In this document: in pieces, positions 1,716-32,000 of the stretch
Position numbering within the stretch: the first letter of the stretch is position 1
Layout of the letters: each line of letters begins with the position of its first letter
From: Methanothermobacter sp.
GTDB lineage: Archaea > Methanobacteriota > Methanobacteria > Methanobacteriales > Methanothermobacteraceae
Assembly (NCBI RefSeq): GCF_030055435.1
Contig: NZ_JASFYG010000001.1
Location: 50,154-82,153 of the forward strand
Direction of reading: 5' to 3'
Length of the DNA: 32,000 bases
The notes under the pieces: model-generated
What the model was told of the DNA's origin: nothing
What the model saw: the letters and a program-made list of their open reading frames with translations, nothing else
Databases searched by the model: none
Translations under genes and position numbers: made by a program

Positions 1716-2972
1716 ATGTACAGATTCGCGCACCTGTCAGACTGCCACCTGGGGGCCCAGAAACAGCCTGAACTCCGGGAACTGGAATTCCAGGCCTTCA
1801 GGATGGCACTGGATGATGCACTGGAGAATAATGTCGACTTCATGATAATAGCGGGGGACCTCTTCCACTCCAACATCCCAAACATGGAGACCGTCAAGAG
1901 GGCCACACTGGAACTCAGGAGGGTCAGGGATGAGGGGGTCCCAATCTACGTCAACTATGGCAGCCACGACTACAGCCCATCAAACACCTCCATGATAGAC
2001 ATCCTGGAAACCGCGGGGGTCATAGAAAAGGTTGTGCGCCCCATCCCAGGAAAGAAGCTGGGACTGGAGTTCACGGTGGATGAGAAGACCGGGGCAAAGA
2101 TCACGGGCCTATCAGGGAGGTCAAGGGCACTGGAGGTTGACTACTTCAGGAACCTTGACAGGGAGGCCCTTGAGGCCGAGGACGGCTTCAGGATATTCCT
2201 CTTCCACAGCGCCATAACCCAGTTCAAGCCCGTTGATTTTGCAGAGATGGACTCCATCGACCTCAACCTCTTCCCCCGTGGCCTGGAGTACTATGCAGGG
2301 GGCCACCTCCACAGGAGGGGCTGCTACCTGGAGGAGGGCTACGGCCCCATAGTATACCCTGGGGCACTCTTCGGTTCATACGCAGGGGACCTTGAGGAGA
2401 ACGCCAGGGGAGAGGAGAGGGGGTACTACCTTGTTGAATTCAGGGAAAAGGCAAAAACTCCCCAGTTCAGGGTTATAAGGCCCGCTGAATTTGAATACAT
2501 AGAATGTGATGTGACAGGTAAGAACTCCCAGGACGCATCCCTCCTTATACGTAAAGAAATGGGGGAACACGATGTCAAGGGAAAGGTTGTGATGTTCAAG
2601 ATCAGGGGTGAGCTCAGCTCAGGGAGAACCTCGGACATAGATTCAGCATGGATAAGGAGGGAACTTGAATCCAGGGGGGCCCGTGTTGTCCAGATCAACA
2701 GGCACGGCCTCAGCACCCGTGAGATACAGAAGGTGAGGGTCGCTGAGAGCGAGATCCCTGCACTTGAGAGGAGGATCTTCAGGGAGAAACTCGCCGGAGT
2801 TGACATCAGAAACAAAAGTCTCATGAAGAGGGGCGACTCACTGGCGGTTGAACTCCTCAGGAAACTTGAAAATGAGATTGCCCCCGGTGAGAAGAAGGAA
2901 GAATATGAGAGGAGGGTCATTGAGGAAGCAGAGGCCGTCATGGGGGTGAATCTGGATGATGATAACCGATAA
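1716..2972 (+). CDS. mre11: Mre11 DNA double-strand-break repair nuclease
   Basis: Phosphoesterase motifs occur in Mre11 order: [35 protein letters not shown]. The ORF track starts at GTG 1707, but that codon lies inside the SD GAGGTGA (1704-1710). ATG 1716 follows the SD by 5 nt, so I prefer it. Confidence 0.9.
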
Positions 2973-3042
2973 CCCCCGGAGAGATGATGGTGTTGACCTG
3001 CTCGGGTGAATCCAGATAACTGATAGCAGGTGGTGATATTCT

Positions 3043-10997: not shown

Positions 10998-12206
10998 ATG
11001 AGGGTTGCGGTTCTGGGACTTGGAGCTGAGGGTTTAAGGGCAGTTGAATCATTAAAAAGAAGGGGTCACAGTGTATATGCAAGTGACATACGACATGTCC
11101 CCGTAAACATTCAGGGGGTTGACCTTGACCTTGGCTTCCATGATACAGGGAAAATAGAGGCTGCGGATGCGGTTGTAATCAGCCCATCAATGATAAAAAC
11201 TGAATTCATGGAGCGGTTCAGGGATAAACTCCTCTGCAGGGTCCTTGAGGGCCACAGGAAGCCCAAAACCATTGTGGTCACAGGGACAAATGGAAAGACC
11301 ACAACCGCCACGATGATAGCACATGTACTTGAATGTGCAGGTAAAAGGGTGCTTCTTGGCGGAAATGCTGGCGGAGGATTTGAGGGCTACACAGAACTCT
11401 TTTTAAGGGCATCAGAGGAGGAATTCGATTACCTTGTTGTGGAGGTCTGCGACATGACCCTGGAATTCGCATCAGAGTGCTTTGACATTGACCTCGTGGT
11501 CCTCACAAACCTTGGCGAGGACCACATGGACTTCCACGGCTCAATGGAGAACTACAGGAGGACGATGACAGAATTCCTGAAGGATAGGGATGCTGTGGTC
11601 GGCGCTGAAGAGTCAGACAGAGAACTCATGGCGGCCCCCCGGCTTCTCAGGACCTACAGTGAGTACACCGGGCCCCTGATGGTTGAGGGCAGCTTCAACA
11701 GGCTGAACGCAGGGGCGGCATCCGAGGCCCTAAGGTATCTGGGGGTTCCAGAGGATATCATAAGGGGGGGACTTGCCAGTTTTGAGCCTGTGAGGGGCCG
11801 TATAAGGTCCTTCATCATCAACGGGTCATCTGTCGTTGCAGGTAAAACCGACAACCCCCATGCCATTAGGGCAGTACTTTCAGAATCAGACTTCGATGTC
11901 ATGTTCATCGGGACACCCCGGAGGTCAGAGGAGTGGCGCCTCCATATCCTTGATGAGATTGCAGGGTCACCCCCCAAGGTCCTTGTGATATTTCCGGGCC
12001 TTGAGGACACGGTTGACATGGTACTGGAGTACCTTGAGGGCCTTGAAATCCCATCAGATGTAATAAAGGTTGATGACCCTGATGAAATCCCCGGGATGAT
12101 CCTTGAGTTTTCCAGGAAATACAGGAGAATCTTCGTGGGTGGAAACGGTCAGGACAGGATAACCAGGGTCCAGGAAAAACTTGATGAAATCTCCTCCTGT
12201 GAATAA
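10998..12206 (+). CDS. Mur-ligase family protein (MurD-like; probable pseudomurein peptide ligase)
   Basis: The Rossmann-like N-terminus is MRVAVLGLGAEGL and the P-loop is VVTGTNGKTTTATM. The Mur ligase middle-domain motif NLGEDHMDFHGSMENY and the C-terminal motif DNPHA are present. Confidence 0.85.
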   Translation: MRVAVLGLGAEGLRAVESLKRRGHSVYASDIRHVPVNIQGVDLDLGFHDTGKIEAADAVVISPSMIKTEFMERFRDKLLCRVLEGHRKPKTIVVTGTNGKTTTATMIAHVLECAGKRVLLGGNAGGGFEGYTELFLRASEEEFDYLVVEVCDMTLEFASECFDIDLVVLTNLGEDHMDFHGSMENYRRTMTEFLKDRDAVVGAEESDRELMAAPRLLRTYSEYTGPLMVEGSFNRLNAGAASEALRYLGVPEDIIRGGLASFEPVRGRIRSFIINGSSVVAGKTDNPHAIRAVLSESDFDVMFIGTPRRSEEWRLHILDEIAGSPPKVLVIFPGLEDTVDMVLEYLEGLEIPSDVIKVDDPDEIPGMILEFSRKYRRIFVGGNGQDRITRVQEKLDEISSCE

Positions 12207-12353
12207 GCAGCATCACATGCATAAGTGGTATATATGAATAACCCATAATAATACAGATTGGGTATTTTAATTTACCTGCTGTATCATCACAAAACTATTA
12301 CTTCATGACCATATCCTAAAACAGATTTATGGGTGCATAAATTGATCAGGAAC

Positions 12354-15350
12354 ATGAAAGTGCTTGTGCTTGGAGCTGGAAACGCTGGTAGACCCGCCGC
12401 AAGATTGCTGAGATACCTTGGAAACAGTGTTCTTGTAAATGACCTAAGGGAACTGGATGAACTGCCCCCCAAGGCCAGGAAGAGAATAGATGAAATGAAA
12501 AGGGAGGGTGTAAGGTTCAGGTTTGGGGGTCACAGGATTGAAGACATGCTCTGGGCTGATGCCGTCTTTGTATCACCCAGCATACCCCCTGATGCACCGG
12601 TACGTGGGATGCTGGGGAGTGTGGAGAAGGATCTGATCCACATAACAACCTCGGATATAGGGAGGACCCTGAACCAGCTTATAGGCATACCCATGGTGGG
12701 AGTTGCAGGTACAGACGGGAAGACAACAACCACCAACATGATAGACCACATACTTTCATCACGCTACAGGACGGTGTCATTCTCATCGATCCAGGACTCA
12801 CTTGTCATCGAGGGACTTGTTGAACTTGTGGTGAATGGTGATGTGAGTAACAGGGACATGGCCGTGTTTGAACTCCCACACGGGACCATAAGGATGGCTG
12901 ATGGCCTCGAAATAGTTGCTGGTGTTGTGACAAACCTCACACCCGACCACATGGATGAGTTCAGGGACTATGATGAATACATTGAGAGGAACTTCTCAAT
13001 AAAGAACCTCATAGCCCCAGGGGGTGTTCTGGTCCTCTGTGGAGATGACCCGGTAATCGCAGGGCTCCTGGATGACCTTGAGGTTAAAAGTATTGTCTAT
13101 GGTCTGGGTAATGAAAGGAAGGTTGAGTTCATGGACAGAACCTTCAGTGGCTCGGCAGAACCACAGGTCAGTGCAACAGACATAGACCTCATGGGTCTCG
13201 AGGGCTCGGAGTTCACACTGAAGGTATCAGAGATACCGACTGCCCTCTGCAGCACCTGCGGATCTTTAAGCTGTGAGGAACATGATGGAGTGGTCCATGT
13301 CGGCCCCCTTACAGAGAGGATAAAACTCAGGGTGCCCGGTCTCTTCAACGTGGAGAACGCCCTTGCAGCCATAACCGTTGCACTGGTACTCGGATTTGAC
13401 ATTAAGGATATCAAAAATGTATTAGAGAAATTCAGGGGTATAAAGGGTAGATTTGAATTCATAGATGAGGTTGATGGTGTGTCTGTTTATATGGACGCAG
13501 CCCACAACCCTGAGAGCATGGAGAAACTCTTTGAGGGCATTGAATTTAAGGGGAGGCTGATAATAAGCCTGGATAACCCCGACACCCTCACAGTGAGGGA
13601 TAAGTACAGGATAGGCCAGATACTTGGCGAAAAAGCCGATATACTGATTGTGAGCGGCAAGAATGAAACAACAGGCATAATTGATATGGAAGCAGCCTCT
13701 GAGGTAGAAAGGGGGGCCGGTAGAGATAAAACCATAAAGACCGAGAGCGTATATGATAGCATAAGGAGGGCCCTTGAAATCGCAGAAAAGGGGGATACGG
13801 TACTCCACCTGGGTCCCGGGGTTGTCAACGCCTATGATAATGTGAGGAATGATATTGAGAGGGCTATAGAGTCAATGAGGGACTTTATAGTTGTCCTCGG
13901 GGGCTGCGGAAATGTTGGAAGCCTCATGGCAAGGAACCTCAGGGCGAGGGGTTACCGGGTAATTGTCTCGGATCTCAAGGAAAGCACACCCCTCGAGGAT
14001 GTCTTCAGGGATGAGGGAATAGAACTTGACCTTGGGGGTCACAGCATGGAGGTCCTCAAGCGCGCTGGCACCATAGCCATCACACCAGCCCTCGAGAATA
14101 ACAGGAAGGTTCTTGACCTTATCAGGGGACTTGAAGCTGATGTTATAGGCGTTGAGGACGTCCTGAACATGTGCCCTGTTGAGAAACCCGTGGTTGGAGT
14201 CACAGGGACCAATGGAAAGACCACAACCACAGGTATTCTCAAATCCATAATGAGGGCTGCCGGAAAGACTGTGCCAGAGCACCACCTCAACATACAGGGC
14301 AACACTGAACTGGTACCGGCCCTCCAGGCAAGGCTCCCGGGGGACGTGGCAGTGGTTGAGATAGGAACATTTGGGAGGAGGGACGAGATAAGGCAATCGG
14401 CCCTTCTCGCAGGGGTCTCAGTTGGTGTCATAACCAACATATCAAGGGACCACCTTTCAGGTGGAAGGAGGTTCTCTGATTACATAGAATGTAAGAGGGA
14501 AATCATTGATACAGCTGAGGTCATGGTACTCAACGCCGATGACCCCATCGTGGCATCATTCGCAGAGGGACTGAGGGAGGAGAGAGCGGTGCTATACGGT
14601 ATTCAGAGCATGGACTCTGCCACAGTGATGCCAGAGGGGAGGGAATGCCCCAAATGTGGTAACCCACTCAAATATACGCGCAGAACCATGGGGCATATGG
14701 GGGACTACCACTGTGTCTGCGGATACAGGAGACCCCAGCCTGAGGTCATGGCACTGGAGGCATCTGCAGATGGATTCAAACTGGTGATAGGCTCCGAGAT
14801 GAGGGATGTGAAATTGAGGACACCAGGGATCTTCAATGTCTACAATGCACTGGCAGCTGCTGCCACTGCCTGGTCCCTTGGCGTGGACATGGATGATATA
14901 GTGAGGGGAATTGAGTCATTCGGTGGTGTGAGGGGAAGGTTCCAGAAACTGATGGACTCACCCCGCGTTATACTCGACTACGCCCACAACCCCGCCGGTG
15001 TGAGGGCTGTGATGCAGGAGCTTAAAGATACTGATGGGAGGCTGATAGTCGTAAACACCGTGGCATCTGAGAGCGGAATCGATGGTGATCTGGAAATTGC
15101 ATCGCTCCTTAGGGATTCCGATACGGTTATACCGGCCTCCTATGCTGCAAGGAGAGCCTCCAGTACCCTGGGTAAGAGGGTTGTCCATATAGAATCCAGC
15201 AGAAAACGTGCAGGAGGGGGGACCCTTGGAGCGAGCCGTGAACAGGTTGAGGAGGCTGTCAATAAGGCCCTTGAAATTGCAGAACCAGATGACACAGTAC
15301 TCATAATAGGTGAGGGGGGATTCAGATATGCAGAGGATTATATCAGGTAA
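12354..15350 (+). CDS. Tandem double Mur-ligase fusion protein (two complete ligase modules; module 2 MurT-like)
   Basis: Module 1: MKVLVLGAGNAG, GVAGTDGKTTTTNM, NLTPDHMDEFRDYDEY, DAAHNPES. Module 2 begins at the in-frame ATG 13875: MRDFIVVLGGCGNVG, GVTGTNGKTTTTGI, NISRDHLSGGRRFSDY, DYAHNPAG. Module 2 also carries the Cys4-type ribbon CPKCGNPLKYTRRTMGHMGDYHCVCGY (14646-14720). The track start GTG 12333 is possible; I prefer ATG 12354. Confidence 0.85.
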   Translation: MKVLVLGAGNAGRPAARLLRYLGNSVLVNDLRELDELPPKARKRIDEMKREGVRFRFGGHRIEDMLWADAVFVSPSIPPDAPVRGMLGSVEKDLIHITTSDIGRTLNQLIGIPMVGVAGTDGKTTTTNMIDHILSSRYRTVSFSSIQDSLVIEGLVELVVNGDVSNRDMAVFELPHGTIRMADGLEIVAGVVTNLTPDHMDEFRDYDEYIERNFSIKNLIAPGGVLVLCGDDPVIAGLLDDLEVKSIVYGLGNERKVEFMDRTFSGSAEPQVSATDIDLMGLEGSEFTLKVSEIPTALCSTCGSLSCEEHDGVVHVGPLTERIKLRVPGLFNVENALAAITVALVLGFDIKDIKNVLEKFRGIKGRFEFIDEVDGVSVYMDAAHNPESMEKLFEGIEFKGRLIISLDNPDTLTVRDKYRIGQILGEKADILIVSGKNETTGIIDMEAASEVERGAGRDKTIKTESVYDSIRRALEIAEKGDTVLHLGPGVVNAYDNVRNDIERAIESMRDFIVVLGGCGNVGSLMARNLRARGYRVIVSDLKESTPLEDVFRDEGIELDLGGHSMEVLKRAGTIAITPALENNRKVLDLIRGLEADVIGVEDVLNMCPVEKPVVGVTGTNGKTTTTGILKSIMRAAGKTVPEHHLNIQGNTELVPALQARLPGDVAVVEIGTFGRRDEIRQSALLAGVSVGVITNISRDHLSGGRRFSDYIECKREIIDTAEVMVLNADDPIVASFAEGLREERAVLYGIQSMDSATVMPEGRECPKCGNPLKYTRRTMGHMGDYHCVCGYRRPQPEVMALEASADGFKLVIGSEMRDVKLRTPGIFNVYNALAAAATAWSLGVDMDDIVRGIESFGGVRGRFQKLMDSPRVILDYAHNPAGVRAVMQELKDTDGRLIVVNTVASESGIDGDLEIASLLRDSDTVIPASYAARRASSTLGKRVVHIESSRKRAGGGTLGASREQVEEAVNKALEIAEPDDTVLIIGEGGFRYAEDYIR

Positions 15351-21628: not shown

Positions 21629-22064
21629 CTGGACAACACCATCTCTGAAATGTCAATCAGGACAATTACTTAATTGATATCTCATTATATTTAAATGTTA
21701 ATCTTTTTCATTTACATTAATAAATTTTTTAGGGATGCGGGATAATCAATTTCATCATGAAATTCGCTGAAAATGTCCATTAACTTCATATACCTTATGA
21801 CAGATGATGGCCGAAGGATGATAAAGCACACATCCTCTGAATGGTATGAGCAAATTCGGTATAATCAAAGAGGGAATATACATTTTTTCACTGACACCTT
21901 CAATATAATTCCAGGATTTGGAATAAAAAAGAGTCTTTTCTGAATGTCAAGTAACATGGAGGAAAATATATATAGAATGATTAGAATAAGATAGCACAAT
22001 ATGTAATGAATTGTTTTCCCTCAACAAATCTTTGTGATAGGAAAATTTAAGGGAAGTGATAATA

Positions 22065-22658
22065 ATGGATACGACACTGATATCTACAATATACTCCATT
22101 GAGCCGGTGATGTTCTGTATAACACAGTTCTCACCAAAAAAGGTTGTACTGCTCAAGGAGGATAAGGCGCCGAGGGAGAAGGAACAGGTTGAACAGGTCC
22201 TCAGGGACACCCTGGGCAACTTCCTTGAGATAACAACCTTTGAGACGAGTCTTTATGATGTTGTCACCATTGCAAAAGATATGGTTGAGATCATAGATGA
22301 GGAAAGGGCCAATGGAAGGCGTGTCGTGGTTAATATAAGCGGTGGCAGGAAGACCCAGGCGCTCGGCGCACTCTTTGGCTGCTATGCAAGAAACCATGAT
22401 GTCCAGCGCATAGTATACGTGACTGAGGAGGATAACGAACTCATAGACCTCCCAATACTTAGCTTCGGGATCTCCAAGACCAAAAAACAGGTCCTTGAGG
22501 AACTCAAAGCCGGTGAAACATCGGTTAAGAACCTTGCAGTCAAGATAGGTATAAGCAGGGGGATGACCTACAACCACATAAGGGAACTCCGTGACATGGG
22601 GTTCATAGACCGTGAAAAGCTTGAAATAACCTCTGCAGGCGAACTTGCAGTGCTTTAA
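22065..22658 (+). CDS. CARF/Csa3-like ligand-binding domain fused to winged-helix DNA-binding domain
   Basis: The N-terminal Rossmann-like domain ends in the Gly-rich loop [21 protein letters not shown]. The C-terminal wHTH reads [34 protein letters not shown] 22065 lies 5 nt after GGGAAGTGA; the track start GTG 22056 lies inside the SD. Confidence 0.55.
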
Positions 22659-22704
22659 ATCATTTTCATGGACACATCTTAACCTAGGAATTAAAGTGTC
22701 CTCA

Positions 22705-23571
22705 ATGCCAATAATCTCTTTAAACAGGACAAAAGATTTTTTTGGAAGAGAAAAGGAGATAAGAAGAATTAATGAAGCCCTCAATGACCCCGGATTTGTG
22801 GTTGTGACGGGTAAGATGGGCTCAGGGAAAACCGCTATTCTCAGGAGAATCCAGGAGGAAAACTCCAACAGGACGACCTTCATTGATATGAGGTGCACCG
22901 ATATCAGGAGGTCCCATGAGGGCATACCTGACTTCAGGAGGATAAAGATCCTTGCAAGAACCTTGGAGTGGAATATACTCCTTGACAGTATGCCTCCTGA
23001 GAAGTCATCCCTAATTGATGCATGGAAGATGTCACAGATGCACTGTATGCGGTGCGCTGTGGCGGTGAGGTACAGTGCAGCACTTATCAGGGATATTCAG
23101 GAGGAACTACCCAGGGCGGCTGTTGTTGAGGTGCCACCCCTCACAGAAAGAGACACAGAAAGGTACATAAGGTTCAGGGCACCGGCTTTCAGGGCTGTCA
23201 GGGCTGGAATAGAATATATCCATGAGGTCACAGGGGGCATGCCTCTATTCATTGACAGCTTCCTGAATGTCTTATCAGATGGAATCATATATGGTCCAGC
23301 GCTCCTTGAGGAGAACTTCAAGGCAAAGTTTCAGCAGATAGCCTTTCCATGGATCGCTGAACTTAACCGCCTGACCCTGAGGGAAAAGAATATACTGAGT
23401 CTCTTAAAGGACGGTCCCCTTGGAGGGGATGAAATACCTGCCAGTAGCAGTGAACTTCGGGAACTTGAACTCAGGGGCCTCATTGAGCTTCATGGAAATA
23501 GCTGGAGTCTCGGCTCAGAGCTGCTCAGAAGGGTCATTGTTGAACTTGAGAATCAGACGGGATGTATCTAG
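22705..23571 (+). CDS. P-loop ATPase of the archaeal ATPase (AAA+, PF01637-like) type with C-terminal wHTH-like domain
   Basis: FFGREKEIRRINEAL...FVVVTGKMGSGKTAIL is the Walker A region. NILLDS is a possible Walker B. VEVPPLTERDTERYI and VTGGMPLFI follow. The C-terminus reads LTLREKNILSLLKDGPLGGDEI...LELRGLIEL. The start is ambiguous among TTG 22645, GTG 22696 and ATG 22705. Confidence 0.65.
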   Translation: MPIISLNRTKDFFGREKEIRRINEALNDPGFVVVTGKMGSGKTAILRRIQEENSNRTTFIDMRCTDIRRSHEGIPDFRRIKILARTLEWNILLDSMPPEKSSLIDAWKMSQMHCMRCAVAVRYSAALIRDIQEELPRAAVVEVPPLTERDTERYIRFRAPAFRAVRAGIEYIHEVTGGMPLFIDSFLNVLSDGIIYGPALLEENFKAKFQQIAFPWIAELNRLTLREKNILSLLKDGPLGGDEIPASSSELRELELRGLIELHGNSWSLGSELLRRVIVELENQTGCI

Positions 23572-23600: not shown

Positions 23601-26600
23601 TTATCTGCCCCTCCAGTAACCGAATCCCACAAGGAACACAAGGGCCACAACACCTAGAAGTGCGTAAAGTGGCACCTGGGTTTCTGATGATCCGCTCTGG
23701 GTTGATGCTGAAACCTCATATGCTTTACCTGAGTCAGCACCCTTTTCTGTTTCACCAGGAGTAGCTTGACCCTGACTTTCAGCCGCTGAACCTGATGATC
23801 CTGTGTATGATTCACCTGATGAACCTGAGGGTCTCTGTCCTGTCATCCCGGCACTTTCACCATTACTGTCTGAACCTGAATGGCCTGGATTCCCTGAACC
23901 TCCTTCCTGTGGTACATCGACTGATGCGCCTGTTGCAGCTGCAAGGGCAGAGGCAAACCTTTTGAGGGATGCCTGGTTGACCGAGGAGACCTTAACAACC
24001 CAGTTATTGAAGACTATATTTGCACAGGTATGATGGCAGCACACCACACCATACTCTCCTGCAAGTTCAATGTAGCGGTTTGCAAGGTCCCTCAGGACAG
24101 CCTTATCTGCATTCCAGATGTTTCGCCTTGCAGCCTCAAGGACCCAGGCGATCATTGACTGGGTTGCAACAGCCTCATAGTCCCCTGATGCCCTGAACCT
24201 GTCACTGAGGAGGTTCAGTGCAAGCTGGTTCCACAGTTCATTGCTCACAGCACCTGTTGTGACGGCCATACCGAAGACATTCTTGTACCTTGAGGCGTAT
24301 TCCAGCCAGCCGCTTGGTGAGCTGAGGAGTGAGTCCATGTAGCGCGGGTTGAGGAGCTGGGATCTCACCTCAAGTTCAATTTCCTCTGCAACGGTCCTGA
24401 CTGTAACCGTTTTTCTGTTCCGTATATCCACCAGTGCGGTGTCAGGGTTGCCGCCGAGGTGGCGTGATGCAAGAACCATTCCACCGAACCAGTCATAGTA
24501 GTCGTCTGTGTCAATGAGCCTCCAGGTGCTGTCCAGGTTCTGTGTAACAAGGTTCACCTTACCCAGTAGGTACTGGAAGGTGCCCCTGTTCTGCTGTATA
24601 TCCACTCCCCGGGGGGTTGACCTCCAGGCATAGGAGACCCTTGAGAGGTAGACATCTGCAAGTTCAGCGCTGGTATTCCACCTTGAGGTTGCCGGTGTCA
24701 TATCTGATACCCCTGTACCCTCAAGCACGAGCCCCCTGAGTCCAAAGACACGGTCCAGTGAGCCGCATTCACTGTAGTGCCTCTTAACATAGTTTTCGGT
24801 GTCATTTGCCTCTGCAGCCATCTTAACAGCGGCGTTCATGAGGTCTATCCAGAGCTGGTTACCTGTGACGGCAGTTACAAATACGTCGATGCGCGGCCTT
24901 GGTATTTCAACGCCGTTCACTGTGATTCTGAGTTCTGATGCGTCCATGAGGACAGGTTCAGGTTTGACGTCACCGTTGGTGTTCCACTGGGGCTTAACCC
25001 CGAGGAGGTACATGAACTCTGCAATGGCAACCCCATCGGTCCTCAGAAGCTCTGTACCCCACATCACCATTCCGATGAGTTCAGGGAATTTTCCGTGCTT
25101 CATGTAGTACTCTGCAAGGAGGGTGTCTGTGATTTTCTTTGCGGTCTCCCAGGCGGCCCTTGTCGGCATCTTCTTGGGGTTGGTGGCGTAGAAGTTGGCG
25201 CCTGTTGGAAGCACATCACACCATGCAGGGTCACCTGCAAGGCCTGGCCTCACAAATCCACCTCCAAGGGCTGAAAGCAGGCTCTGCCATTCGGTGTTTC
25301 CACGTATCTTTCTGATCGTCTCATTGATGAATTCAAGGTCGGTGCCGTTTATACCTGCAGGGGCAGTGCCGTTTATGATGTTCCTGATCCATGTCCGTGC
25401 AAGGTTCTTGACCGAGGCTATCTCGTCACTGTATCTCAGGGGGTCCTTAAGCATTTCAGTGTAGACTGGCTTTGAGGGGTAGAGGGTTTTCCTGATGTTC
25501 TCCAGGAACTCTGACCTTGATGATGCTATGGTGAGAACCTCCTCAACCAGCTCCTCACCATCAAGCACCCTTCCCAGGCTGTGAAGTCCCAGGGGGATTA
25601 TGTCTGATTCTATCTCATGGAGACTGAGGTGGAGCCTCTCCAGGGCATCTGTGAAGTTTCCTGACATGTTGAAGCCCATCTCTGAGGCTCTGGATCTGAT
25701 CTGGGACTCAATGGCCGGGAGTATCTGGCTGTTACCAACCTTCAGGGCGTTCTCGTACTGGTGGATGAGGTCATGTATCTCAATGAGTTTACCGTAGAGT
25801 CCGCTCTCCACCATTGCAGGGGTCATGTGGTCGATTATGAGTGCCCCGCTCCGGTCCTTTGCAACCATGCCCTCCCCTGGATTTGAGACTATGTAGGGGT
25901 AGATGTTTGGTATCCCTGTGAGCTGGAATGGCCAGTCATCCTCCATGAGCCCTATCATCCTTCCAGGGAGGAACTCCAGTGTCCCGTGGGTTCCAAGGTG
26001 TATCATTGCATTTGCCCCGAAGACGTTCTCCATCCACCTGTAGAAGGCTATGTACTGGTGGTGTGGCGGCAGGTATGGGTTGTGGTAGTCTGTGACCTCA
26101 TCCCATCCACGTGCCGGCTGGACCGTCACGAAGATGTTCCCCAGCATTATACCCGGTATCACTATGCTGCCGTTCACCGTCATTATGTTGCCTGGTGCGG
26201 CCCCCCATTTTGATAGGACCTCTGACCTGAGTTTTTCAGGGAGTTTGCTGAACCATTCCAGGTATTTCTGCACATCAAGGAGCTGCCCGCTGGCCTGCAG
26301 TTCTGCCCTGTGCTCACTCACGTACCTCTCAAGGAGTGGCTGTGCCCAGGTACCCTTGTTACCAAACTCTGAGACTATCCTGTAGAGCTCCTCCACGTCG
26401 GGTATCCTTTCAACCCTGTAGCCTGTCTCGTTGAGCTTCACCAGGAGGTCGTGGAGGCTCCTGAAGACGTCCAGGTATGATGCCGTGAACCCATCCTTCC
26501 CCGGTGGGTAGCTGTAGAGTATCACCGCGATTTTCTTATCTGAATTGCTGAGTTCCCTGAGCCTTGCCCATCCATCGGCCAGTTTGACGATCTTCTCCAC

Positions 26601-28061
26601 ACCCTCATGAACCACAACCTCATTCCATGATGCGTCGGTGTAGGACACAACGATGGGTGAGAAGACACCCTCGAACCCGGGTATCGTGACCTGCCATGTC
26701 CATTCGTACTGGGCACCCAGCGGGTTTGTGAGGCTTGAGTTGCTGTAGAGCTGCACCCCCTTGATCACGGGGATGTTGATCCTCTCAAACTCTGCTAGCG
26801 CCCCACCTGATGGCAGGTTGGCGTAGTTGAGTGACCAGGAGTAGAGGGATATCACCGCGTCTATCCTCCTTGTGAGGGGCCCCTTACCGTTAACACCAAG
26901 GGCGAGTTCCTCAAGGAGTGAACTCACAGCAGGGTTTGTGGCGCCCTGGTAGAGGTTGAATATGGCCCTTCCCTGTTTCTCTGCCTGGCGTATTATCGCG
27001 TCCACGGTCGGTGATGGATTGTAGCTTACAACGACGATGAATGGTCCTGTCATGTTTTTGTTTGCTGTGTACCAGTTCTCGAACTGTCTGTAGATATCTG
27101 CCCTCTGGTCTTCCGCCCATGCCGAGAAGTTCTGGTCTATCCATCTGAGGCTGTCATATGGTGGTATGAGACCAGGGTTGCCCTCTATCCAGGCCTTTAT
27201 TCTGGATCTTTCTGCAACCACACTCATGACTCCAAGGTCAGGGTGGTAGAGTCCCCAGTCAGGGGCTGCCATGACCGGCCCCTGATTGTTCTCAACCGGG
27301 TTGAAGGTGGTCTCACCGAGGAGGTACTGGATGTACTTTATCATGTTCTCCAGGTTCTCCCTGGCTGCCCCTCCTGATGCGAGGGCGTAGTAGCTTGCAA
27401 TGTAGGTATTCTCCACTGTGTCCGGTGTGTCATTTCCTGGTGTTCCGCCGAGGAGGTTCAGACCTGTTCCACCGTAGGGGTCAGTGTCTGTGTCTGTTGG
27501 GTAACCGAAGGCAGCTGCTATCATGTTTCTCTGGTTCGCGGGACTCCTCAGGAGGTATGGATACCAGGAGTCGCCCCAGCCTGTCCCGGGCATTGCCATG
27601 TCCAGGTAGGCGAAGTTCACGTGCTCCATGATCCAGTCACTGGCCGCTGAGGATGGGTCCCACATGTCATGGTAGATTATCCTCCTGTTACCCATTGACT
27701 TCAGTATGCGTCCCTTCTCAGGGACCGAGCTTATGATGGCTATATCCGGCATGAATGTGTGGTTCAGTGTTTGGCTTGAGGTCACGGTGTATGTCACTGG
27801 CCGGTAGGTGTGGTAGCTTATCCTCACCTCAACGGGGAATGTGTCACTGAATGTAACCCTGTAGGATCCGTCTGCCGCTGTTCGTGTTTCATTGATAACC
27901 GAACCATTGTATATCACGGTGATGCTTGCATTCTTCACCGGCAGTGCATCCTGGAGTGTGGTGTATCCTCCTGATGTTTCATTGTAGATCTCCTTTATAT
28001 GTCCTGAAACCTCCGCTGCGCTGGCTGTCCCTGTCAGTGCAACTGCGAGTATTACCGCCAT
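23601..28061 (-). CDS. Giant exported, C-terminally membrane-anchored CobN/Mg-chelatase-H-like protein
   Basis: 1486 aa. The signal peptide is (KRFITV)MAVILAVALTGTASA. A CarboxypepD_reg-like beta-sandwich is suggested by KNASITVIYNGSVINETRTAADGSYRVTF. The CobN core includes IHLGTHGTLEFLPGR (compare CobN HxGxHGxLEWLPG). The C-terminus has a CCHHTC motif, an S/G/P-rich linker, GKAYEV...PLYALLGVVALVFLVGFGYWRGR (TM plus basic tail) and many N-x-S/T sequons. The real start may be ATT 28082 (see findings). Confidence 0.85.
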   Translation of the reverse strand: MAVILAVALTGTASAAEVSGHIKEIYNETSGGYTTLQDALPVKNASITVIYNGSVINETRTAADGSYRVTFSDTFPVEVRISYHTYRPVTYTVTSSQTLNHTFMPDIAIISSVPEKGRILKSMGNRRIIYHDMWDPSSAASDWIMEHVNFAYLDMAMPGTGWGDSWYPYLLRSPANQRNMIAAAFGYPTDTDTDPYGGTGLNLLGGTPGNDTPDTVENTYIASYYALASGGAARENLENMIKYIQYLLGETTFNPVENNQGPVMAAPDWGLYHPDLGVMSVVAERSRIKAWIEGNPGLIPPYDSLRWIDQNFSAWAEDQRADIYRQFENWYTANKNMTGPFIVVVSYNPSPTVDAIIRQAEKQGRAIFNLYQGATNPAVSSLLEELALGVNGKGPLTRRIDAVISLYSWSLNYANLPSGGALAEFERINIPVIKGVQLYSNSSLTNPLGAQYEWTWQVTIPGFEGVFSPIVVSYTDASWNEVVVHEGVEKIVKLADGWARLRELSNSDKKIAVILYSYPPGKDGFTASYLDVFRSLHDLLVKLNETGYRVERIPDVEELYRIVSEFGNKGTWAQPLLERYVSEHRAELQASGQLLDVQKYLEWFSKLPEKLRSEVLSKWGAAPGNIMTVNGSIVIPGIMLGNIFVTVQPARGWDEVTDYHNPYLPPHHQYIAFYRWMENVFGANAMIHLGTHGTLEFLPGRMIGLMEDDWPFQLTGIPNIYPYIVSNPGEGMVAKDRSGALIIDHMTPAMVESGLYGKLIEIHDLIHQYENALKVGNSQILPAIESQIRSRASEMGFNMSGNFTDALERLHLSLHEIESDIIPLGLHSLGRVLDGEELVEEVLTIASSRSEFLENIRKTLYPSKPVYTEMLKDPLRYSDEIASVKNLARTWIRNIINGTAPAGINGTDLEFINETIRKIRGNTEWQSLLSALGGGFVRPGLAGDPAWCDVLPTGANFYATNPKKMPTRAAWETAKKITDTLLAEYYMKHGKFPELIGMVMWGTELLRTDGVAIAEFMYLLGVKPQWNTNGDVKPEPVLMDASELRITVNGVEIPRPRIDVFVTAVTGNQLWIDLMNAAVKMAAEANDTENYVKRHYSECGSLDRVFGLRGLVLEGTGVSDMTPATSRWNTSAELADVYLSRVSYAWRSTPRGVDIQQNRGTFQYLLGKVNLVTQNLDSTWRLIDTDDYYDWFGGMVLASRHLGGNPDTALVDIRNRKTVTVRTVAEEIELEVRSQLLNPRYMDSLLSSPSGWLEYASRYKNVFGMAVTTGAVSNELWNQLALNLLSDRFRASGDYEAVATQSMIAWVLEAARRNIWNADKAVLRDLANRYIELAGEYGVVCCHHTCANIVFNNWVVKVSSVNQASLKRFASALAAATGASVDVPQEGGSGNPGHSGSDSNGESAGMTGQRPSGSSGESYTGSSGSAAESQGQATPGETEKGADSGKAYEVSASTQSGSSETQVPLYALLGVVALVFLVGFGYWRGR

Positions 28062-28087
28062 TACTGTGATGAATCTTTTAATATTTT

Positions 28088-28129
28088 CACCTCCCTTTAA
28101 TTTTATTCAGGTTTACTTTAAGGGAGGCG
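28088..28129 (-). promoter_or_regulatory. SD-sequestering hairpin in the 5' UTR of the CobN-like gene
   Basis: On the mRNA strand, CCUCCCUU (from 28127-28120) is perfectly complementary to AAGGGAGG (from 28097-28090), which contains the SD. The loop is 22 nt. The stem can extend by a G-U and a C-G pair. Confidence 0.4.
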
Positions 28130-28206
28130 ATATTTAAAATTAACTTTAATTATTTTAAAACAAATTTTAAATATGTTTATTCATATGGTCCGATTAAATG
28201 CCTTTG

Positions 28207-28328
28207 CTGATAATAAAAGAAGTTGATGGGGTTTTCAGGTTATTTGGCGGGGATTCTTTAGTATTCACTGATAATAAAAGAAGTTGATGGGGTTTTCAGG
28301 TTATTTGGCGGGGATTCTTTAGTATTCA
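28207..28328. repeat. Perfect tandem duplication, 2 x 61 bp, plus a degenerate third copy (28329 to about 28366)
   Basis: Units 28207-28267 and 28268-28328 are identical: ctgataataaaagaagttgatggggttttcaggttatttggcggggattctttagtattca. The next roughly 38 nt (gtgataataaaagaggtgattggagttaaaggtggtgg) are about 75 percent similar and overlap the 3' end of the 28354 gene. Confidence 0.95.
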
Positions 28329-28353
28329 GTGATAATAAAAGAGGTGATTGGAG

Positions 28354-29439
28354 TTAAAGGTGGTGGCTGTTTCTCCTCATGGTCTCAGCCCTCTCCCTGT
28401 AACCTCTGATACCTCCGCTATCCTCCTGTAGGTTGAAGAACACCGAGTGTATGACCTCACCTGCATGTGTCAGGGCCGAGCCCACAAGACCCTCGGCAGT
28501 GTACCTGTGGTCTATCCCGTAGCCGGGGGATGGGTAACGGTGTTCCTCTGCGTTCATGATCCTCTCAATGAAGCCATCGGGGTCCACAGGGTCGTATTTT
28601 ACATCATCATGGAGCATGGCCTCGATTGCATAGCTCTTTATGATCTTATCATGGAGTTTCCTGTAGGCTGAACTTCTTGATACAAGTTCAAATCCTGCAA
28701 TTCTACCGTTGATTGCAACAAGCACTCCGTTCTGCTCTTTAAGCGGTTTGAATGGTTTTTTGAATTCCTCCAGTGTCTTTCTCTTCTTTCTGTAGGCATC
28801 TGCCATTGCACCTGTTTTTGAGGTTGAGCCGGCCCTCCTGTGGAGCCTGTTAACCTCATCCCATACGCTGCTCTGGCGTGAGCAGTACGCCGTCAGTAAC
28901 TCTTCCTGGTTCCTGATATTGATCTCCCTGATATCCTCAAAGGTGTCACGTATGACATGCTCATCCTCAGGGGCATCATCTATTTCAGCGCTTCTACCAA
29001 TGTTCTCAAGGTTCTCTGTCACGGTCCTTGTCTTGGTAACCCTTACGTTGAGTGCAGCCACCCTTTCAGGGTCCCTGAACTCCTTTGAGGTGTAGGACCA
29101 TCTGCCCTGCTCCACGCAGCTTACAGGTATCATGGTTTCTGACTTCTCAGGCAACAGAACTGTGACGTTGGCCACACGGTTCTGCTTGGCACCCTCCAGT
29201 TCCTCCCCGTCAATTATGAGTACGGGTTCATCAGCCCGGTTAACTGCAAGTACCGTGGGTACTGAGCCATATTCGTCCACCTCACCTATACTTATGAGGT
29301 CCTTGCTCATGGCATCTCTCAGTGTAAGGTAGTTCTGGCTCCCCTCAGGCGCCCTCACCGGGATGACCTCCATCTGACCTGAAACCTGGGGTTTGAGGAA
29401 CTCCAGGCTATCAAGACAGCTCTTGACTATCTCATTCAA
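28354..29439 (-). CDS. GAKQNR-motif protein (ARPP-1/DUF6569-like, assignment from memory)
   Basis: The N-terminal domain reads MEVIPV...NYLTLRDAMSKDLISIGEVDEYGSVPTVLAVNRADEPVLIIDGEELEGAKQNRVANVTVLLPEKSETMIPVSCVEQGRW. This matches my memory of the ARPP-1 family pattern (YLTL.EA...G...V.E....G.V..L.V.N....PVLLLDGEEL.GAKQNR..N....). TTG 29439 lies 4 nt after AGAGGTGA (29451-29444); the track start TTG 29454 overlaps that SD. Confidence 0.75.
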   Translation of the reverse strand: MNEIVKSCLDSLEFLKPQVSGQMEVIPVRAPEGSQNYLTLRDAMSKDLISIGEVDEYGSVPTVLAVNRADEPVLIIDGEELEGAKQNRVANVTVLLPEKSETMIPVSCVEQGRWSYTSKEFRDPERVAALNVRVTKTRTVTENLENIGRSAEIDDAPEDEHVIRDTFEDIREINIRNQEELLTAYCSRQSSVWDEVNRLHRRAGSTSKTGAMADAYRKKRKTLEEFKKPFKPLKEQNGVLVAINGRIAGFELVSRSSAYRKLHDKIIKSYAIEAMLHDDVKYDPVDPDGFIERIMNAEEHRYPSPGYGIDHRYTAEGLVGSALTHAGEVIHSVFFNLQEDSGGIRGYRERAETMRRNSHHL

Positions 29440-29490
29440 AACATCACCTCTCAATGTTAACAGCCAGATAATTCACTCTGGATCTAGTTA

Positions 29491-29516
29491 TGTATATGTA
29501 AATTATTGAATATAAA
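29491..29516 (-). promoter_or_regulatory. Promoter block with TATA box, copy A (upstream of the GAKQNR-motif gene)
   Basis: The minus strand reads TTTATATTCAATAATTTACATATACA. It matches copy B (30630-30655) at 24 of 26 positions and begins with a TTTATAT TATA box about 72 nt upstream of the TTG start. Confidence 0.5.
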
Positions 29517-29706
29517 TATTTTTACTGAATAATTGAAAATATTTTATTCAAATATGGGTGAAATATCTGTTTAATGAAAGAATTGCATTTAAAATGCGAT
29601 ATTCTGAAAGATTTGAAGTGTTTACAGGGGCACGCTGTGATCCTGGTTTCCTTCTCTGAGAGCCTGTAAGCATTTAATAAAAAATTAGAGGTATTATGGG
29701 GATATA

Positions 29707-30549
29707 TCAGCTGTTGTCCATGAGGGCGGCCCTCAGGTCCTCAACAGGTACATCGTAGGTCTCACAGACCCTCTGGAGCCATGCCAGTGTCGACTCAGGT
29801 GTTAGGGACATGGAAACCCTGAAGAGCTCTGCAAGCACCTGAAACTGTGGTGAGGCGGTATCAAGGATTTTCACAAGTGATCTTGAAAGTTTGAGGCATT
29901 TCCTTGCGTTTGATATGAATGAGCTCAGGGTCTCCTGGTATTCAAGGGCATCCACGTCCCTCTCATCATCCATTATCACTGTGGGGGTGAAGATGTCGTA
30001 CTCCCAGTTGAAGAGTCCCAGGATGAATCCCCTCTTATCCTCTGCCCCCTCAAGGTACCCTGATATGATGGACAGAATACCGTGGGATACCGCCGATGGA
30101 CTTGACCTCAGGTTGCCTGTAACCCCCAGGCTTGACTCCAGCAGTTTCTTCAGGGAGGTCTTCATCCAGCCGCTCTGGGGGTCGTCAAGGTCGTTCAGCG
30201 TGGCCTCCACAACCTTCCTAATCTCAAAGGGTTTATCTGTGAGGTCAAAGAAGTGGGGGTAGCGGGATTTCATTTCCATCTTCAGCTCCTCTGTATCGTG
30301 TTCCCCAGGGTCTTCACGGGTCTCCTGGAAGGCCTCAAAGAGGATAATGTCCCTTAAACGTATGTGGGACGTCCACTCGGTGAAGTATTTTATCCGGATA
30401 TCCTCGGCGGTTTTACGCCCCAGTGGGGTGTTCAGGAGGGAAGGATGGTATTTCAGGAACTCCTCCCAGCCCTCAAGGCCGGTGTATCCTGATTTCAGGA
30501 TTCTCTCTGCAGCCTCATTATATTTTATGCCTTCAAATATGTCCAACAT
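29707..30549 (-). CDS. Orphan protein, no recognisable domain (probably all-alpha)
   Basis: The ORF is open to 30615 (TTG). AGAGGTGG (30558-30551) sits just upstream of ATG 30549 and TTG 30546, giving MLDIFEGIKYNEAAERIL... I recognise no motifs. Confidence 0.65.
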   Translation of the reverse strand: MLDIFEGIKYNEAAERILKSGYTGLEGWEEFLKYHPSLLNTPLGRKTAEDIRIKYFTEWTSHIRLRDIILFEAFQETREDPGEHDTEELKMEMKSRYPHFFDLTDKPFEIRKVVEATLNDLDDPQSGWMKTSLKKLLESSLGVTGNLRSSPSAVSHGILSIISGYLEGAEDKRGFILGLFNWEYDIFTPTVIMDDERDVDALEYQETLSSFISNARKCLKLSRSLVKILDTASPQFQVLAELFRVSMSLTPESTLAWLQRVCETYDVPVEDLRAALMDNS

Positions 30550-30568
30550 ACCACCTCTAGAAGAGAGA

Positions 30569-30588
30569 GGGAGGTCACTGAGCCTCCC
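30569..30588 (-). promoter_or_regulatory. GGGAGG/CCUCCC hairpin in the 5' UTR of the orphan gene
   Basis: The mRNA strand reads GGGAGG-CUCAGUGA-CCUCCC, a 6-bp all-strong stem with an 8-nt loop. It lies 10 nt upstream of the SD AGAGGUGG. The CCUCC(C/U) arm could alternatively pair with the SD. Confidence 0.35.
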
Positions 30589-30629
30589 TATACACAAATA
30601 TCCTGAATAAAACAATCATATATGTAGCA

Positions 30630-30655
30630 GTGTATATGTATTTTATTGAATATAA
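30630..30655 (-). promoter_or_regulatory. Promoter block with TATA box, copy B (upstream of the orphan gene)
   Basis: The minus strand reads TTTATATTCAATAAAATACATATACA, matching copy A at 24 of 26 positions. A GAAAATA (plus-strand reading) follows both copies at similar spacing. Confidence 0.5.
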
Positions 30656-30761
30656 AGGTTGTGGTGAAGTTGATGAAAATAGTTCATTTATTAATCCTAT
30701 GATTAAAATGTATAACAGAATTCTCCCGGGATTCTAAAAAAATAAAATGGGGATGTCGCAG

Positions 30762-32000
30762 CTACCTCCCGGTACCCTTAAGGTAACCGGCTCCAAGGAG
30801 TGCGACAATTGAAACTATACCCAGTATGGCGTAGAGTGGAGTTTCAGTGGATCCGGAGTTGCTGTTACTTGATGCTGCGACCTCGTATGCCTTACCAGAT
30901 TCTTTACCGGTCTCTGAAGGCGTATTCTGAGATTTTGCTGAAGCCTCCTCTGAAACCGCAGATACGCTCCTACCAGGGCTGATATGTCCCTCTGATCCCC
31001 CAGGTGTGGATGGGTTCTGTGATCCCCCGGGCCTGCCCTGTGTAACATCAGGCGTGGGATCTCCTTCCACCTGAATGGCAGCCCCTGTGGCGTACCTGAA
31101 TTTCTCAAGGAAGGTCCTGAGTTCAGCGGAATTCAGTGAGGAGAGCTTCAGTATCCAGCTGTTGAGCTGGATGTTACCGCAGGTGTGGTGGCAGCATGCA
31201 ACACCGTACTCACTGGTTGTCCTCACGTAGATATCTGCCAGCATCCTCAGGGTCTCCCTGTCGGCATTCCAGTAGCCCCTCCGGGCGGCGTTTAGGAGTG
31301 TGCCTGTTATACTGATGAGTGCATATGCATTCTTCCCTGTTGAAAGCCATTCCCTGACTCCGAGACAATATCTGTCCCTTATATAGATATTCACTGCTTC
31401 GTTCCACATGGAATCAGTCACAGCGTCTGGTACTGTCACCTTCCAGCCCCAGAGGTTCTCAAAGAAGTTGCCTGATATGTAACTGGCGCCGGCATAGCCC
31501 TCCCGCATCATGGCACTGATCCATTCCCTGTTGAAGAACTTGCTGTGCAGGTCCCTGAGGATGAACTCTGAGAGCGTGTCGATGCCTGGTTTTGCCGGGT
31601 TCACCTGGTTCAGTATGAAGAGTTCAGGTCTCCTTCCTTTCACCCTCTCAACAGCAAGGCTGAAACCGCCAAGGAACTCGTAGTTATGGTCCAGGTCCAG
31701 GACTCCGTGTTTTGTATCTGAACGTGAATGGTAAACCCCGTCGATGTCCCTCAGCCTCCTTGTGAAGATCTCTGTGTTGATGGATCCCCAGTCGTCCTCC
31801 CGGTAGGAGTACTTCATGTCTGAGATGAAGGCGTCGCCGAGTTCCAGTCTGTCACTCCAGGTATCTGAGAGCTGTGCACCTGTTCTAACACCTGATGACC
31901 CCCACTCGCCAGGTGGAGGACCGAATATCCTGCTCACAGCCATCCTACCCGCCTCTGAAGCTCCAAAGTTCTTCGAAAGAAGAGCCTCTGTGTCGCTGAG
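30762..32000 (-). CDS. Second CobN-like paralog, C-terminal about 410 aa (gene continues beyond window end)
   Basis: The frame stays open to nt 32000 (..LSDTEALLSKNFGASEAGRMAVSRIFGPPPGEWG..). It is collinear with the C-terminus of the 23601-28061 protein: YGVACCHHTCGNIQLNSW vs YGVVCCHHTCANIVFNNW. It has the same S/G/P linker and the same GKAYEV...PLYAILGIVSIVALLGAGYLKGTGR anchor. Confidence 0.85.
   Translation of the reverse strand, partial: LSDTEALLSKNFGASEAGRMAVSRIFGPPPGEWGSSGVRTGAQLSDTWSDRLELGDAFISDMKYSYREDDWGSINTEIFTRRLRDIDGVYHSRSDTKHGVLDLDHNYEFLGGFSLAVERVKGRRPELFILNQVNPAKPGIDTLSEFILRDLHSKFFNREWISAMMREGYAGASYISGNFFENLWGWKVTVPDAVTDSMWNEAVNIYIRDRYCLGVREWLSTGKNAYALISITGTLLNAARRGYWNADRETLRMLADIYVRTTSEYGVACCHHTCGNIQLNSWILKLSSLNSAELRTFLEKFRYATGAAIQVEGDPTPDVTQGRPGGSQNPSTPGGSEGHISPGRSVSAVSEEASAKSQNTPSETGKESGKAYEVAASSNSNSGSTETPLYAILGIVSIVALLGAGYLKGTGR

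Follow-up and report, generated by a model that had tools for sequence, protein, structure and literature searches.

Results

Gene content of the locus

The window analysed here is a 32,000-nucleotide (32-kb) stretch of the genome of a Methanothermobacter sp. (contig NZ_JASFYG010000001.1), a host that homolog matches place close to M. marburgensis within the genus (CobN1 97% identical). The last 8.4 kb of the window (positions 23601–32000) is filled by four co-directional open reading frames (ORFs) on the minus strand, all found as a first-pass annotation of the letters had described them: in coordinate order, the CobN-like protein CobN1, the GAKQNR-motif protein ARPP-1, an orphan, and the second CobN-like protein CobN2, which is cut by the window end (Table 1). 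Profile searches bear out the CobN-like and ARPP-1-like labels, with PF02514 matching both giants above its Pfam cutoff of 24.5 bits (CobN1 along its entire length), and PF20208 matching ARPP-1 over positions 2–297 of its 297 profile positions. The CobN-like pair is an uncharacterised archaeal variant of the known CobN/HmuS kind, accompanied by unrelated variable genes.

Sequence and topology of the CobN-like proteins

CobN1 is the ortholog of M. marburgensis Marburg cobN2 (MTBMA_c09040), to which it is 97.4% identical with a ratio of nonsynonymous to synonymous substitution rates (dN/dS) of 0.09 (compared with CP001710, here locus L167). The numbering in the two species is crossed, as the gene called cobN1 in M. 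marburgensis (MTBMA_c06860) is a different paralog at a different locus. CobN2 is about 32% identical to CobN1; the full-length CobN2 ortholog, in the related locus L089, has 1572 amino acids (aa) and a signal peptide. On these sequence comparisons, CobN1 and CobN2 are anciently diverged paralogs of the class I chelatase large-subunit superfamily (CobN/ChlH/HmuS). Both proteins remain far below every NCBIfam CobN/BchH equivalog cutoff (best scores 566 vs. 1619 for NF004645, 510 vs. 829 for BchH, and 454 vs. 822 for cobalto_cobN); the matches are partial and reach roughly a third to three fifths of these values. Against solved structures, full-length CobN1 scores about equally with ChlH, CobN and HmuS (354, 347 and 331 bits), while the best PDB match of CobN2 is HmuS (9d26, 133 bits vs. 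89 for CobN).

Hydropathy analysis supports the signal peptide that had been proposed for the complete paralog, CobN1, whose N-terminal hydrophobic segment ends ASA/AE. With a start at the ATG (28061), the n-region of this signal peptide would be uncharged. In the same frame, an Ile codon (ATT at 28082, window 28080–28082; ATC or ATT in orthologs) lies 5 nt past GGAGGTGA and is followed by K/R-R. The upstream frame, the Ile codon and the K/R-R n-region are kept in all CobN1 orthologs (including L004/L005, L089 and L167), and in strain Delta H the signal peptide of the ortholog contains no ATG at all. Because of the uncharged n-region, the conserved upstream frame with its K/R-R, and the Delta H sequence, the start of CobN1 is probably the non-canonical ATT, giving 1493 aa.

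Both paralogs end, as had been noted, in an S/G/P-rich linker and a transmembrane (TM) anchor. The linkers are about 57 aa long and 75–79% S/G/P/T/E/A, and each is followed by a hydrophobic helix and a short basic tail. GKAYEV stands just before the anchor in both proteins, despite their low overall identity. An archaeosortase-type sorting signal was considered for these C-termini, but no NCBIfam CTERM model matched at E ≤ 0.01, and the helix was taken as a plain TM anchor. By the positive-inside rule, we infer that both termini of each protein lie in the cytoplasm and the body outside.

Two further features attributed to CobN1 stand in part. The carboxypeptidase-regulatory-like beta-sandwich scores below the Pfam cutoff (32.3 bits) and remains a candidate, weak or faint matches to which recur in orthologs. 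The "many" N-glycosylation sequons come to a modest excess (18 vs. 10.9 expected), with none in the visible part of CobN2.

Comparison with HmuS, CobN and ChlH

The closest structural precedent for the two window proteins is the heme dechelatase HmuS (Bacteroides thetaiotaomicron and Porphyromonas gingivalis; PDB 9D26), which carries out an anaerobic, reductant-dependent conversion of heme to protoporphyrin IX. It is held by N- and C-terminal TM helices, is ATP-independent and requires His-538; the role of its many archaeal homologs was called "unclear" by the authors (PMC12583661). The window proteins resemble HmuS in superfamily fold and size (>1400 aa), and the signals for membrane anchoring at both ends around an extracytoplasmic body have hydropathy counterparts in CobN1 and in the L089 CobN2 ortholog. 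HmuS has no ATPase requirement, and the window CobN-like genes have no adjacent ATPase partner; among the larger ORFs of the 32-kb window, Pfam detected nothing like ChlI, ChlD, CobS or CobT, in agreement with the first-pass annotation. A C-terminal Cys-containing segment of HmuS that CobN and ChlH lack is aligned by both window proteins, reading C-S-G-F-V-C in HmuS and CCHHTC in the window. Over the N-terminal 700 aa of the L089 CobN2 ortholog, the alignment to HmuS is weak (27.6 bits, residues 324–533) and leaves the heme ligands Met-79 and His-254, at the head/neck interface of HmuS, without an assigned counterpart. HmuS differs in the hosts in which it is found, the window host being an archaeon without an outer membrane and with no hmuY or hmuR seen, and in lacking the extra N-terminal beta-sandwich candidate of CobN1.

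With CobN of CobNST (PDB 7C6O, 9UK9) and ChlH/BchH (PDB 4ZHJ), the window family has in common PF02514 and an HxGxHG motif. This motif is HLGTHG in CobN1, its His equivalent to HmuS His-538, and YLGRHG in the L089 CobN2 ortholog, where the His is likewise retained (the equivalent region of CobN2 lies beyond the window). NPGEG of CobN1 aligns with NNPSEAT of ChlH, and the Glu equivalent to ChlH E660 is kept. Canonical CobN and ChlH are cytoplasmic, ATP-dependent and encoded alongside AAA+/vWA partners, whereas the window proteins have export and anchor signals and no such neighbours.

The two paralogs differ in domain V. The HmuS family motif LSLDHxxEFMGG, which contains His-1209 and Glu-1212 (PMC12583661), is present in CobN2 as LDLDHNYEFLGG, with residues matching both. 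The corresponding stretch of CobN1, IDTDDYYDWFGG, is instead the acidic version of CobN type (DDYY..GG), in which an Asp (DDYYDWFGG) takes the place of His-1209. Because CobN2 has the HmuS-type His/Glu pair and CobN1 the CobN-type Asp pair, this comparison suggests that they differ in metal or macrocycle specificity.

Predicted exported CobN-like proteins in metagenomes

With its low-complexity tail, which probably overloaded the word pre-filter, the CobN2 fragment drew 4 matches only in a protein homolog search. Without this tail, it retrieved 78 loci and 66 distinct full-length proteins from metagenomes. The organisms behind these contigs are not given, and their methanogen origin is suggested by the sample types and by the remark on archaeal homologs in the HmuS paper. 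A C-terminal TM helix with a basic tail is present in 65/66 of the full-length proteins and an N-terminal hydrophobic segment in 55/66. CCHHTC is found in 65/66, at the place where HmuS has C-S-G-F-V-C. The CCHHTC of these exported proteins (L090–L166) may be a metal site.

The gene neighbourhoods of the family recall that of hmuS. Genes for DUF2162, MotA_ExbB and DUF2149 adjoin the CobN-like gene in 31/78 loci (in L098 in the order CobN-like, DUF2162, ExbB, DUF2149), and HmuS is itself encoded with hmuT, hmuU and hmuV. The P. gingivalis annotation assigns hmuU to MotA/ExbB and hmuV to DUF2149, and calls hmuT "hypothetical" (PMC11681262), and DUF2162 is equated with HmuT because of gene order only. 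The recurrent partners of the exported chelatase-like proteins thus resemble, at the level of sequence families, the HmuTUV set. At least 15/78 loci contain tandem arrays of two or three CobN-like genes; further families seen repeatedly next to such genes are NADH:flavin oxidoreductase (7) and CorA (4). Some arrays (L117, L118, L122, L130, L146, L149) are followed by an Oxidored_FMN gene and a GAF-PAS histidine kinase gene, an arrangement that is suggestive because HmuS turnover needs a reductant. No AAA+/vWA partner occurs in the top-25 families (those found in at least 2 of 84 immediate neighbours), and ARPP-1 is absent from the families listed for these 84 neighbours.

The two middle genes

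ARPP-1 is the ortholog of MTBMA_c09030 and is 91% identical to the homolog P0153. It starts at a TTG following GAGGTGAT. Its conserved core includes Gln86 and Cys108, both invariant across 28 aligned sequences; the conserved Cys and Gln of the ARPP domain were noted by Iyer, Burroughs, Anantharaman and Aravind in 2022 (PMC9503650). With the ARPP proteins of that study, the window protein shares the full domain, the intact Cys/Gln core and a stand-alone architecture of about 330–360 aa. None of the published partners (ARG, rhodanese-phosphatase, WYL, HIRAN, PF01522 polysaccharide deacetylase) lies beside ARPP-1, be it in the window or in the Methanothermobacter loci, and the signal peptide of the exported ARPP subset is missing. 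The AlphaFold2 (AF2) model has a predicted local distance difference test score (pLDDT) of 88 and no PDB fold match. Methanothermobacter ARPP-1 carries an acidic insertion at residues ~150–185 that is absent from the rest of the family and of low confidence in the model (pLDDT <50 at residues 161–173); in strain K4 (L001 10001–11140) this insertion contains an internal tandem duplication.

The orphan starts at an ATG following AGAGGTGG and matched nothing in Pfam, NCBIfam, PADLOC or PHROGs. Searches of 5.8 billion proteins and 1.84 billion cluster representatives found homologs only in Methanothermobacter, which makes it, by sequence, a genus-restricted ORFan; a remote candidate homolog, P0128, proved to be a perfect-repeat protein giving 11 weak repeated matches in an exhaustive HMMER search, and was rejected as spurious. 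The gene is under purifying selection (dN/dS 0.08–0.18). Its product is predicted to be all-alpha and cytoplasmic (AF2 pLDDT 41). Hydropathy revealed no hydrophobic segment or export signal in ARPP-1 or the orphan, and ARPP-1 is likewise predicted to be cytoplasmic. PADLOC and PHROGs gave no match for ARPP-1 either.

The nearly identical promoter block reported ahead of these two genes is real. A 26-nt block, TTTATATTCAATAAnnTACATATACA, which includes the TATA-like TTTATATT, occurs in exactly two copies in the window (0 expected). The copy ahead of ARPP-1 is conserved in K4, L006 and L007, with 3 mismatches in Delta H. On this sequence pattern, the block is an ARPP-1 promoter conserved across the genus, a second copy of which lies ahead of the orphan. 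ARPP-1 and the orphan each have their own copy and their own oligo-T terminator.

Variation and linkage of the four genes

In L089, CobN1 comes next after CobN2, separated from it by about 190 bp that contain neither ARPP-1 nor the orphan. In M. marburgensis, K4 and two metagenome relatives (L006, L007), the order is UvrD-PDDEXK, orphan, ARPP-1, CobN1, and CobN2 is deleted. K4, L006 and L007 each yielded an alignable, decayed 3′ remnant of CobN2; M. marburgensis has a 5′ (signal peptide) remnant as well as a 3′ one. The former lies in the gap between pcrA2 and the orphan (L167 8255–8900), where a mini-ORF, MRVRKHIAVMLFLVPL..., resembles a CobN2 signal-peptide remnant. Since this remnant and the decayed 3′ tail remain, the sequence points to an internal deletion of the ~4.5-kb CobN2 gene in M. 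marburgensis. Delta H has no orphan, and in L007/L008 the orphan is split. The order ARPP-1, CobN1 persists in Delta H, K4, M. marburgensis, L006 and L007.

Outside the genus, 80 ARPP-1 loci were examined with their fetched flanks (at most 10 kb on either side, less on many contigs; 9/80 from Methanobacteriaceae, Methanobacterium or Methanobrevibacter), and none of these flanks contained a CobN. Among 100 immediate ARPP-1 neighbours in these taxa, CobN is not in the 25 commonest families, which include WYL/WCX (8), receiver domains (8) and ADP-ribosylglycohydrolase (4). This pattern matches the published description of ARPP, in which the domain is tied to restriction endonucleases, helicases and regulators of the WYL type (PMC9503650). 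The family otherwise occurs in conflict settings that involve ADP-ribose and nucleic acids. The conserved linkage of the middle genes with CobN-like genes, which the first-pass annotation had proposed as a check, was thus not found in the flanks fetched outside the genus, and within it the arrangement varies. A conserved UvrD/ARPP-1 pair was also considered and rejected, as L089 keeps UvrD without ARPP-1.

Protein abundance in M. marburgensis

Published proteomics of M. marburgensis (PMC12350162 supplement) was mapped to the locus by gene order in CP001710. When iron was lowered from 50 to 1 µM, MTBMA_c09030 (ARPP-1, 41 kDa) rose from about 1.3e6 to about 1.65e8 (~130-fold), while cobN2, the ortholog of window CobN1, fell from about 5.6e7 to about 6.5e6 (~9-fold) (PMC12350162). 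ARPP-1 moves opposite to cobN2, which contradicts co-regulation of ARPP-1 with the CobN-like gene; a lack of co-expression was one of the outcomes that the first-pass annotation had named as refuting its proposal. Among the M. marburgensis proteins, the ARPP-1 ortholog belongs to those strongly induced by iron limitation, an ARPP–iron link not described before. Iron limitation also raised pcrA2, AAA_16 and Csa3, and nickel limitation brought cobN2, detected as a 164-kDa protein, down to near zero; the orphan was not detected under any condition (PMC12350162).

The other CobN-annotated paralog of M. marburgensis, cobN1 (MTBMA_c06860), is described as a "possible metal-chelating protein" made only under nickel limitation, ~300-fold up (PMC12350162). 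This response ties the paralog family, in at least one member from a different locus of the same genus, to metal supply. The ortholog of window CobN1 is not induced by nickel or iron shortage.

Other features of the window

Between the ARPP-1 stop and the CobN1 promoter lies a 61-bp tandem duplication with a partial third copy. It looks recent, because no relative has a full-length copy of the unit: blastn-short gave partial matches only (one each in K4 and L007, two in L006). An AT-rich inverted repeat spans the presumed TATA region of CobN1, in a stretch that aligns with L089 10391–10564; to judge from its sequence, it may be an operator. No Rfam family matched at E ≤ 1 across 20–32 kb, and so no riboswitch was found there.

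Next to CobN1, on the opposite strand (22056–23571), a Csa3 (CARF–winged helix-turn-helix) regulator gene overlaps one for an AAA_16/STAND-like ATPase, a pair kept beside CobN1 in every Methanothermobacter locus examined. The remaining content comprises a HerA/Mre11/Rad50-like DNA-repair cluster (182–5556), a 2-oxoacid:ferredoxin oxidoreductase, MsrA, a pseudomurein-binding-repeat protein, and a Mur-ligase gene pair within 10998–15350, one of which encodes a 1005-aa double Mur ligase; the pair probably serves pseudomurein peptide synthesis.

Table 1. Positions of genes, protein motifs and repeats at the CobN-like locus (window coordinates)
Feature	Position	Strand	Basis and remarks
CobN1	23601–28082 (23601–28061 from ATG)	−	PF02514, 767.7 bits; 1486 aa from ATG
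C-terminal TM anchor of CobN1	23613–23669	−	Hydropathy; tail WRGR; preceded by 57-aa S/G/P-rich linker with GKAYEV
CCHHTC motif of CobN1	24024–24041	−	Present in 65/66 full-length family members
DDYYDWFGG, domain-V motif of CobN1	24480–24506	−	Alignment to 9d26; Asp in place of HmuS His-1209
HLGTHG motif of CobN1	25983–26000	−	Alignment; motif per PMC12583661
Carboxypeptidase-regulatory-like beta-sandwich candidate, CobN1 residues 40–103	27753–27944	−	PF13620, 27.1 bits, E 5e-6; sub-threshold
Predicted Sec signal peptide of CobN1, (M)KRFITVMAVILAVALTGTASA/AE	28017–28082	−	Hydropathy peak 2.08, residues 3–26
AT-rich inverted repeat over presumed CobN1 promoter	28130–28174		20-nt arms, 85% complementary, 5-nt gap
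61-bp tandem duplication	28207–28342		2.2 copies, two exact; carries ARPP-1 oligo-T terminator
ARPP-1	28354–29439	−	PF20208, 308.1 bits; 361 aa, TTG start
ARPP-1 conserved core, EGAKQNR..IPVSCVEQGRW	29098–29193	−	Alignment; contains Gln86 and Cys108
Promoter block upstream of ARPP-1 (TATA-like element and downstream sequence)	29491–29516	−	26-nt block, first of two exact copies
Orphan	29707–30549	−	280 aa, ATG start; no library match
Second promoter block copy, upstream of orphan	30631–30656	−	26-nt block, second exact copy
CobN2	30762–beyond 32000	−	PF02514, 219.2 bits; C-terminal 412 aa in window
C-terminal TM anchor of CobN2	30771–30851	−	Hydropathy; tail KGTGR
CCHHTC motif of CobN2	31179–31196	−	Shared with CobN1
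DHNYEFLGG of CobN2, within LDLDHNYEFLGG	31665–31691	−	HmuS-type; residues match His-1209 and Glu-1212 (PMC12583661)

Discussion

We hold with moderate confidence that the region contains two separate things, a pair of exported chelatase-like paralogs and two unrelated inserted genes. Its history, read from the sequences of the related loci, is most likely that of an ancestral tandem CobN2–CobN1 pair into which a variable 2.7-kb insertion brought two genes for cytoplasmic proteins. The enzyme-like ARPP-1 and the orphan are variable passengers, not chelatase partners.

In the proposed mechanism, CobN2 and CobN1 would cross the membrane by the Sec route and remain anchored on its outer side by the C-terminal TM helix with its short basic cytoplasmic tail. 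A metallo-tetrapyrrole would bind in the central cleft and, by analogy with HmuS, its metal would be removed or exchanged outside the cytoplasm with no AAA+/vWA motor. An outward-facing chelatase-H fold working without an adjacent motor, as put forward in the first-pass annotation, is supported by the topology signals, by their prevalence in the metagenome family, by the lack of a partner family and by the HmuS precedent. That the pair removes or exchanges the metal of a tetrapyrrole outside the cytoplasm and without ATP, as homology and context suggest, seems to us plausible but still tentative. The substrate is probably not heme; the host belongs to the Methanobacteriales, which are not known to have cytochromes, and heme is for this reason not an obvious substrate.

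Besides this lack of cytochromes, several observations weigh against our reading of the locus. The signal peptide and TM calls were made from hydropathy and inspection. The second His of HmuS is absent from CobN1. The N-terminal half of the L089 CobN2 ortholog is nearer CobN than HmuS (71.5 vs. 27.6 bits). In HmuS, domain IV contains a Met-rich insertion with 21 Met among 120 residues; CobN1 and the L089 CobN2 ortholog reach a maximum of 8–9 Met per 120 aa and have no such insertion. A tblastn search of the window and of the regions flanking the Methanothermobacter loci gave no homolog of DUF2162, ExbB or DUF2149, the hmuTUV-like set. The CobN1 ortholog goes down under both nickel and iron limitation, unlike a protein induced for scavenging. 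Finally, ARPP-1 stands beside CobN1 throughout the genus except in L089, and a lineage-specific link between the two is thus conceivable.

The exported CobN-like proteins might instead be non-catalytic, serving in corrinoid, tetrapyrrole or metal binding or capture, or as structural components of the envelope. The candidate N-terminal beta-sandwich, the long linker, the membrane anchor, the many paralogs per locus and the loss of the second HmuS His in CobN1 would suit such a role. It would leave the conservation of the active-site His/Glu and CCHHTC under strong purifying selection (dN/dS ~0.09) to be accounted for, and the ExbB/DUF2149/DUF2162 and NADH:flavin oxidoreductase genes of related loci suggest an energised, redox-dependent, Hmu-like process; we consider it unlikely.

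We give about the same low weight to the idea that ARPP-1, possibly with the orphan, works with a flanking UvrD-PDDEXK helicase-nuclease, the AAA_16 STAND-like ATPase and the Csa3 CARF regulator in a stress or conflict island around the chelatase genes. The joint rise of pcrA2, ARPP-1, AAA_16 and Csa3 under iron limitation while cobN2 falls is what such an island would show, and PDDEXK_1, helicases, WYL and ARG among the ARPP-1 neighbours agree with the published ties of the domain (PMC9503650). Iron limitation shifts many proteins, however, so this co-induction is weak evidence; neither ARPP-1 nor the orphan matches PADLOC or PHROGs, L089 has UvrD without ARPP-1, and in the window CobN2 stands between ARPP-1 and the presumed position of UvrD.

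Two further readings are far less probable. That all four genes make up a single cell-surface module or regulon, with ARPP-1 and the orphan working alongside both exported CobN-like proteins, as the first-pass annotation had proposed, drew on their adjacency and common direction, the promoter block of the middle genes and, now, the ARPP-1–CobN1 order retained in five relatives; it is largely refuted by the missing export signals of the middle proteins, the uninterrupted CobN2–CobN1 pair of L089, the CobN2 deletions in four relatives, the loss or splitting of the orphan, the absence of CobN from the fetched flanks of all 80 ARPP-1 loci of other taxa and of ARPP-1 from the listed CobN-like neighbours, and the opposite responses to iron limitation. 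In methanogens, cobalt is inserted early by CbiX/CbiK and nickel by CfbA. This speaks against the role of conventional cytoplasmic subunits of a cobalt or nickel chelatase that serves cobamide or F430 synthesis, which the current annotation "cobalamin biosynthesis protein N" implies; although the PF02514 and partial NCBIfam CobN/BchH matches, the kept catalytic His and Glu and the listing of this type of gene among the CobN candidates of Kaster et al. (PMC3087415) favour that role, scores far under every equivalog cutoff, a signal peptide with a C-terminal anchor, and no AAA+/vWA neighbour in the window or in the top-25 families of related loci make it highly improbable.

For the separate exported pair and its passengers, our conclusions on structure and genome organisation (gene identities, topology signals, motif states, locus variability, the lack of linkage and the opposite protein regulation in the sister species) are much firmer than those on mechanism, where extracytoplasmic (de)chelation, its substrate and its independence of ATP are inferred by analogy. 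A more specific extension, doubtful at present, is that nickel, cobalt or iron would be stripped or swapped outside the cell from F430, corrinoids or heme of dead cells, with the tandem pair handling different metals or macrocycles.

Methanogens rely heavily on nickel, cobalt, iron and tetrapyrrole cofactors (F430, cobamides), and how these metals and cofactors are supplied in sulfidic, metal-poor habitats is poorly understood. A concrete candidate for the processing of metals or tetrapyrroles outside the cell is the large outward-facing CobN/HmuS-like family, whose members are commonly mislabelled as "cobalamin biosynthesis protein N". The structural paper on HmuS left its archaeal homologs unexplained (PMC12583661). 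New here are the architecture of the family (signal peptide, CCHHTC, linker and anchor), the hmuSTUV-like related loci with ExbB, DUF2149 and DUF2162, and the distinction between HmuS-type and CobN-type paralogs; a false lead is removed by placing ARPP-1 and the orphan outside the exported chelatase system. What results is a hypothesis open to testing, and the genus has become genetically tractable. If true, extracytoplasmic tetrapyrrole processing would be a trace-metal or cofactor salvage route not yet described in archaea.

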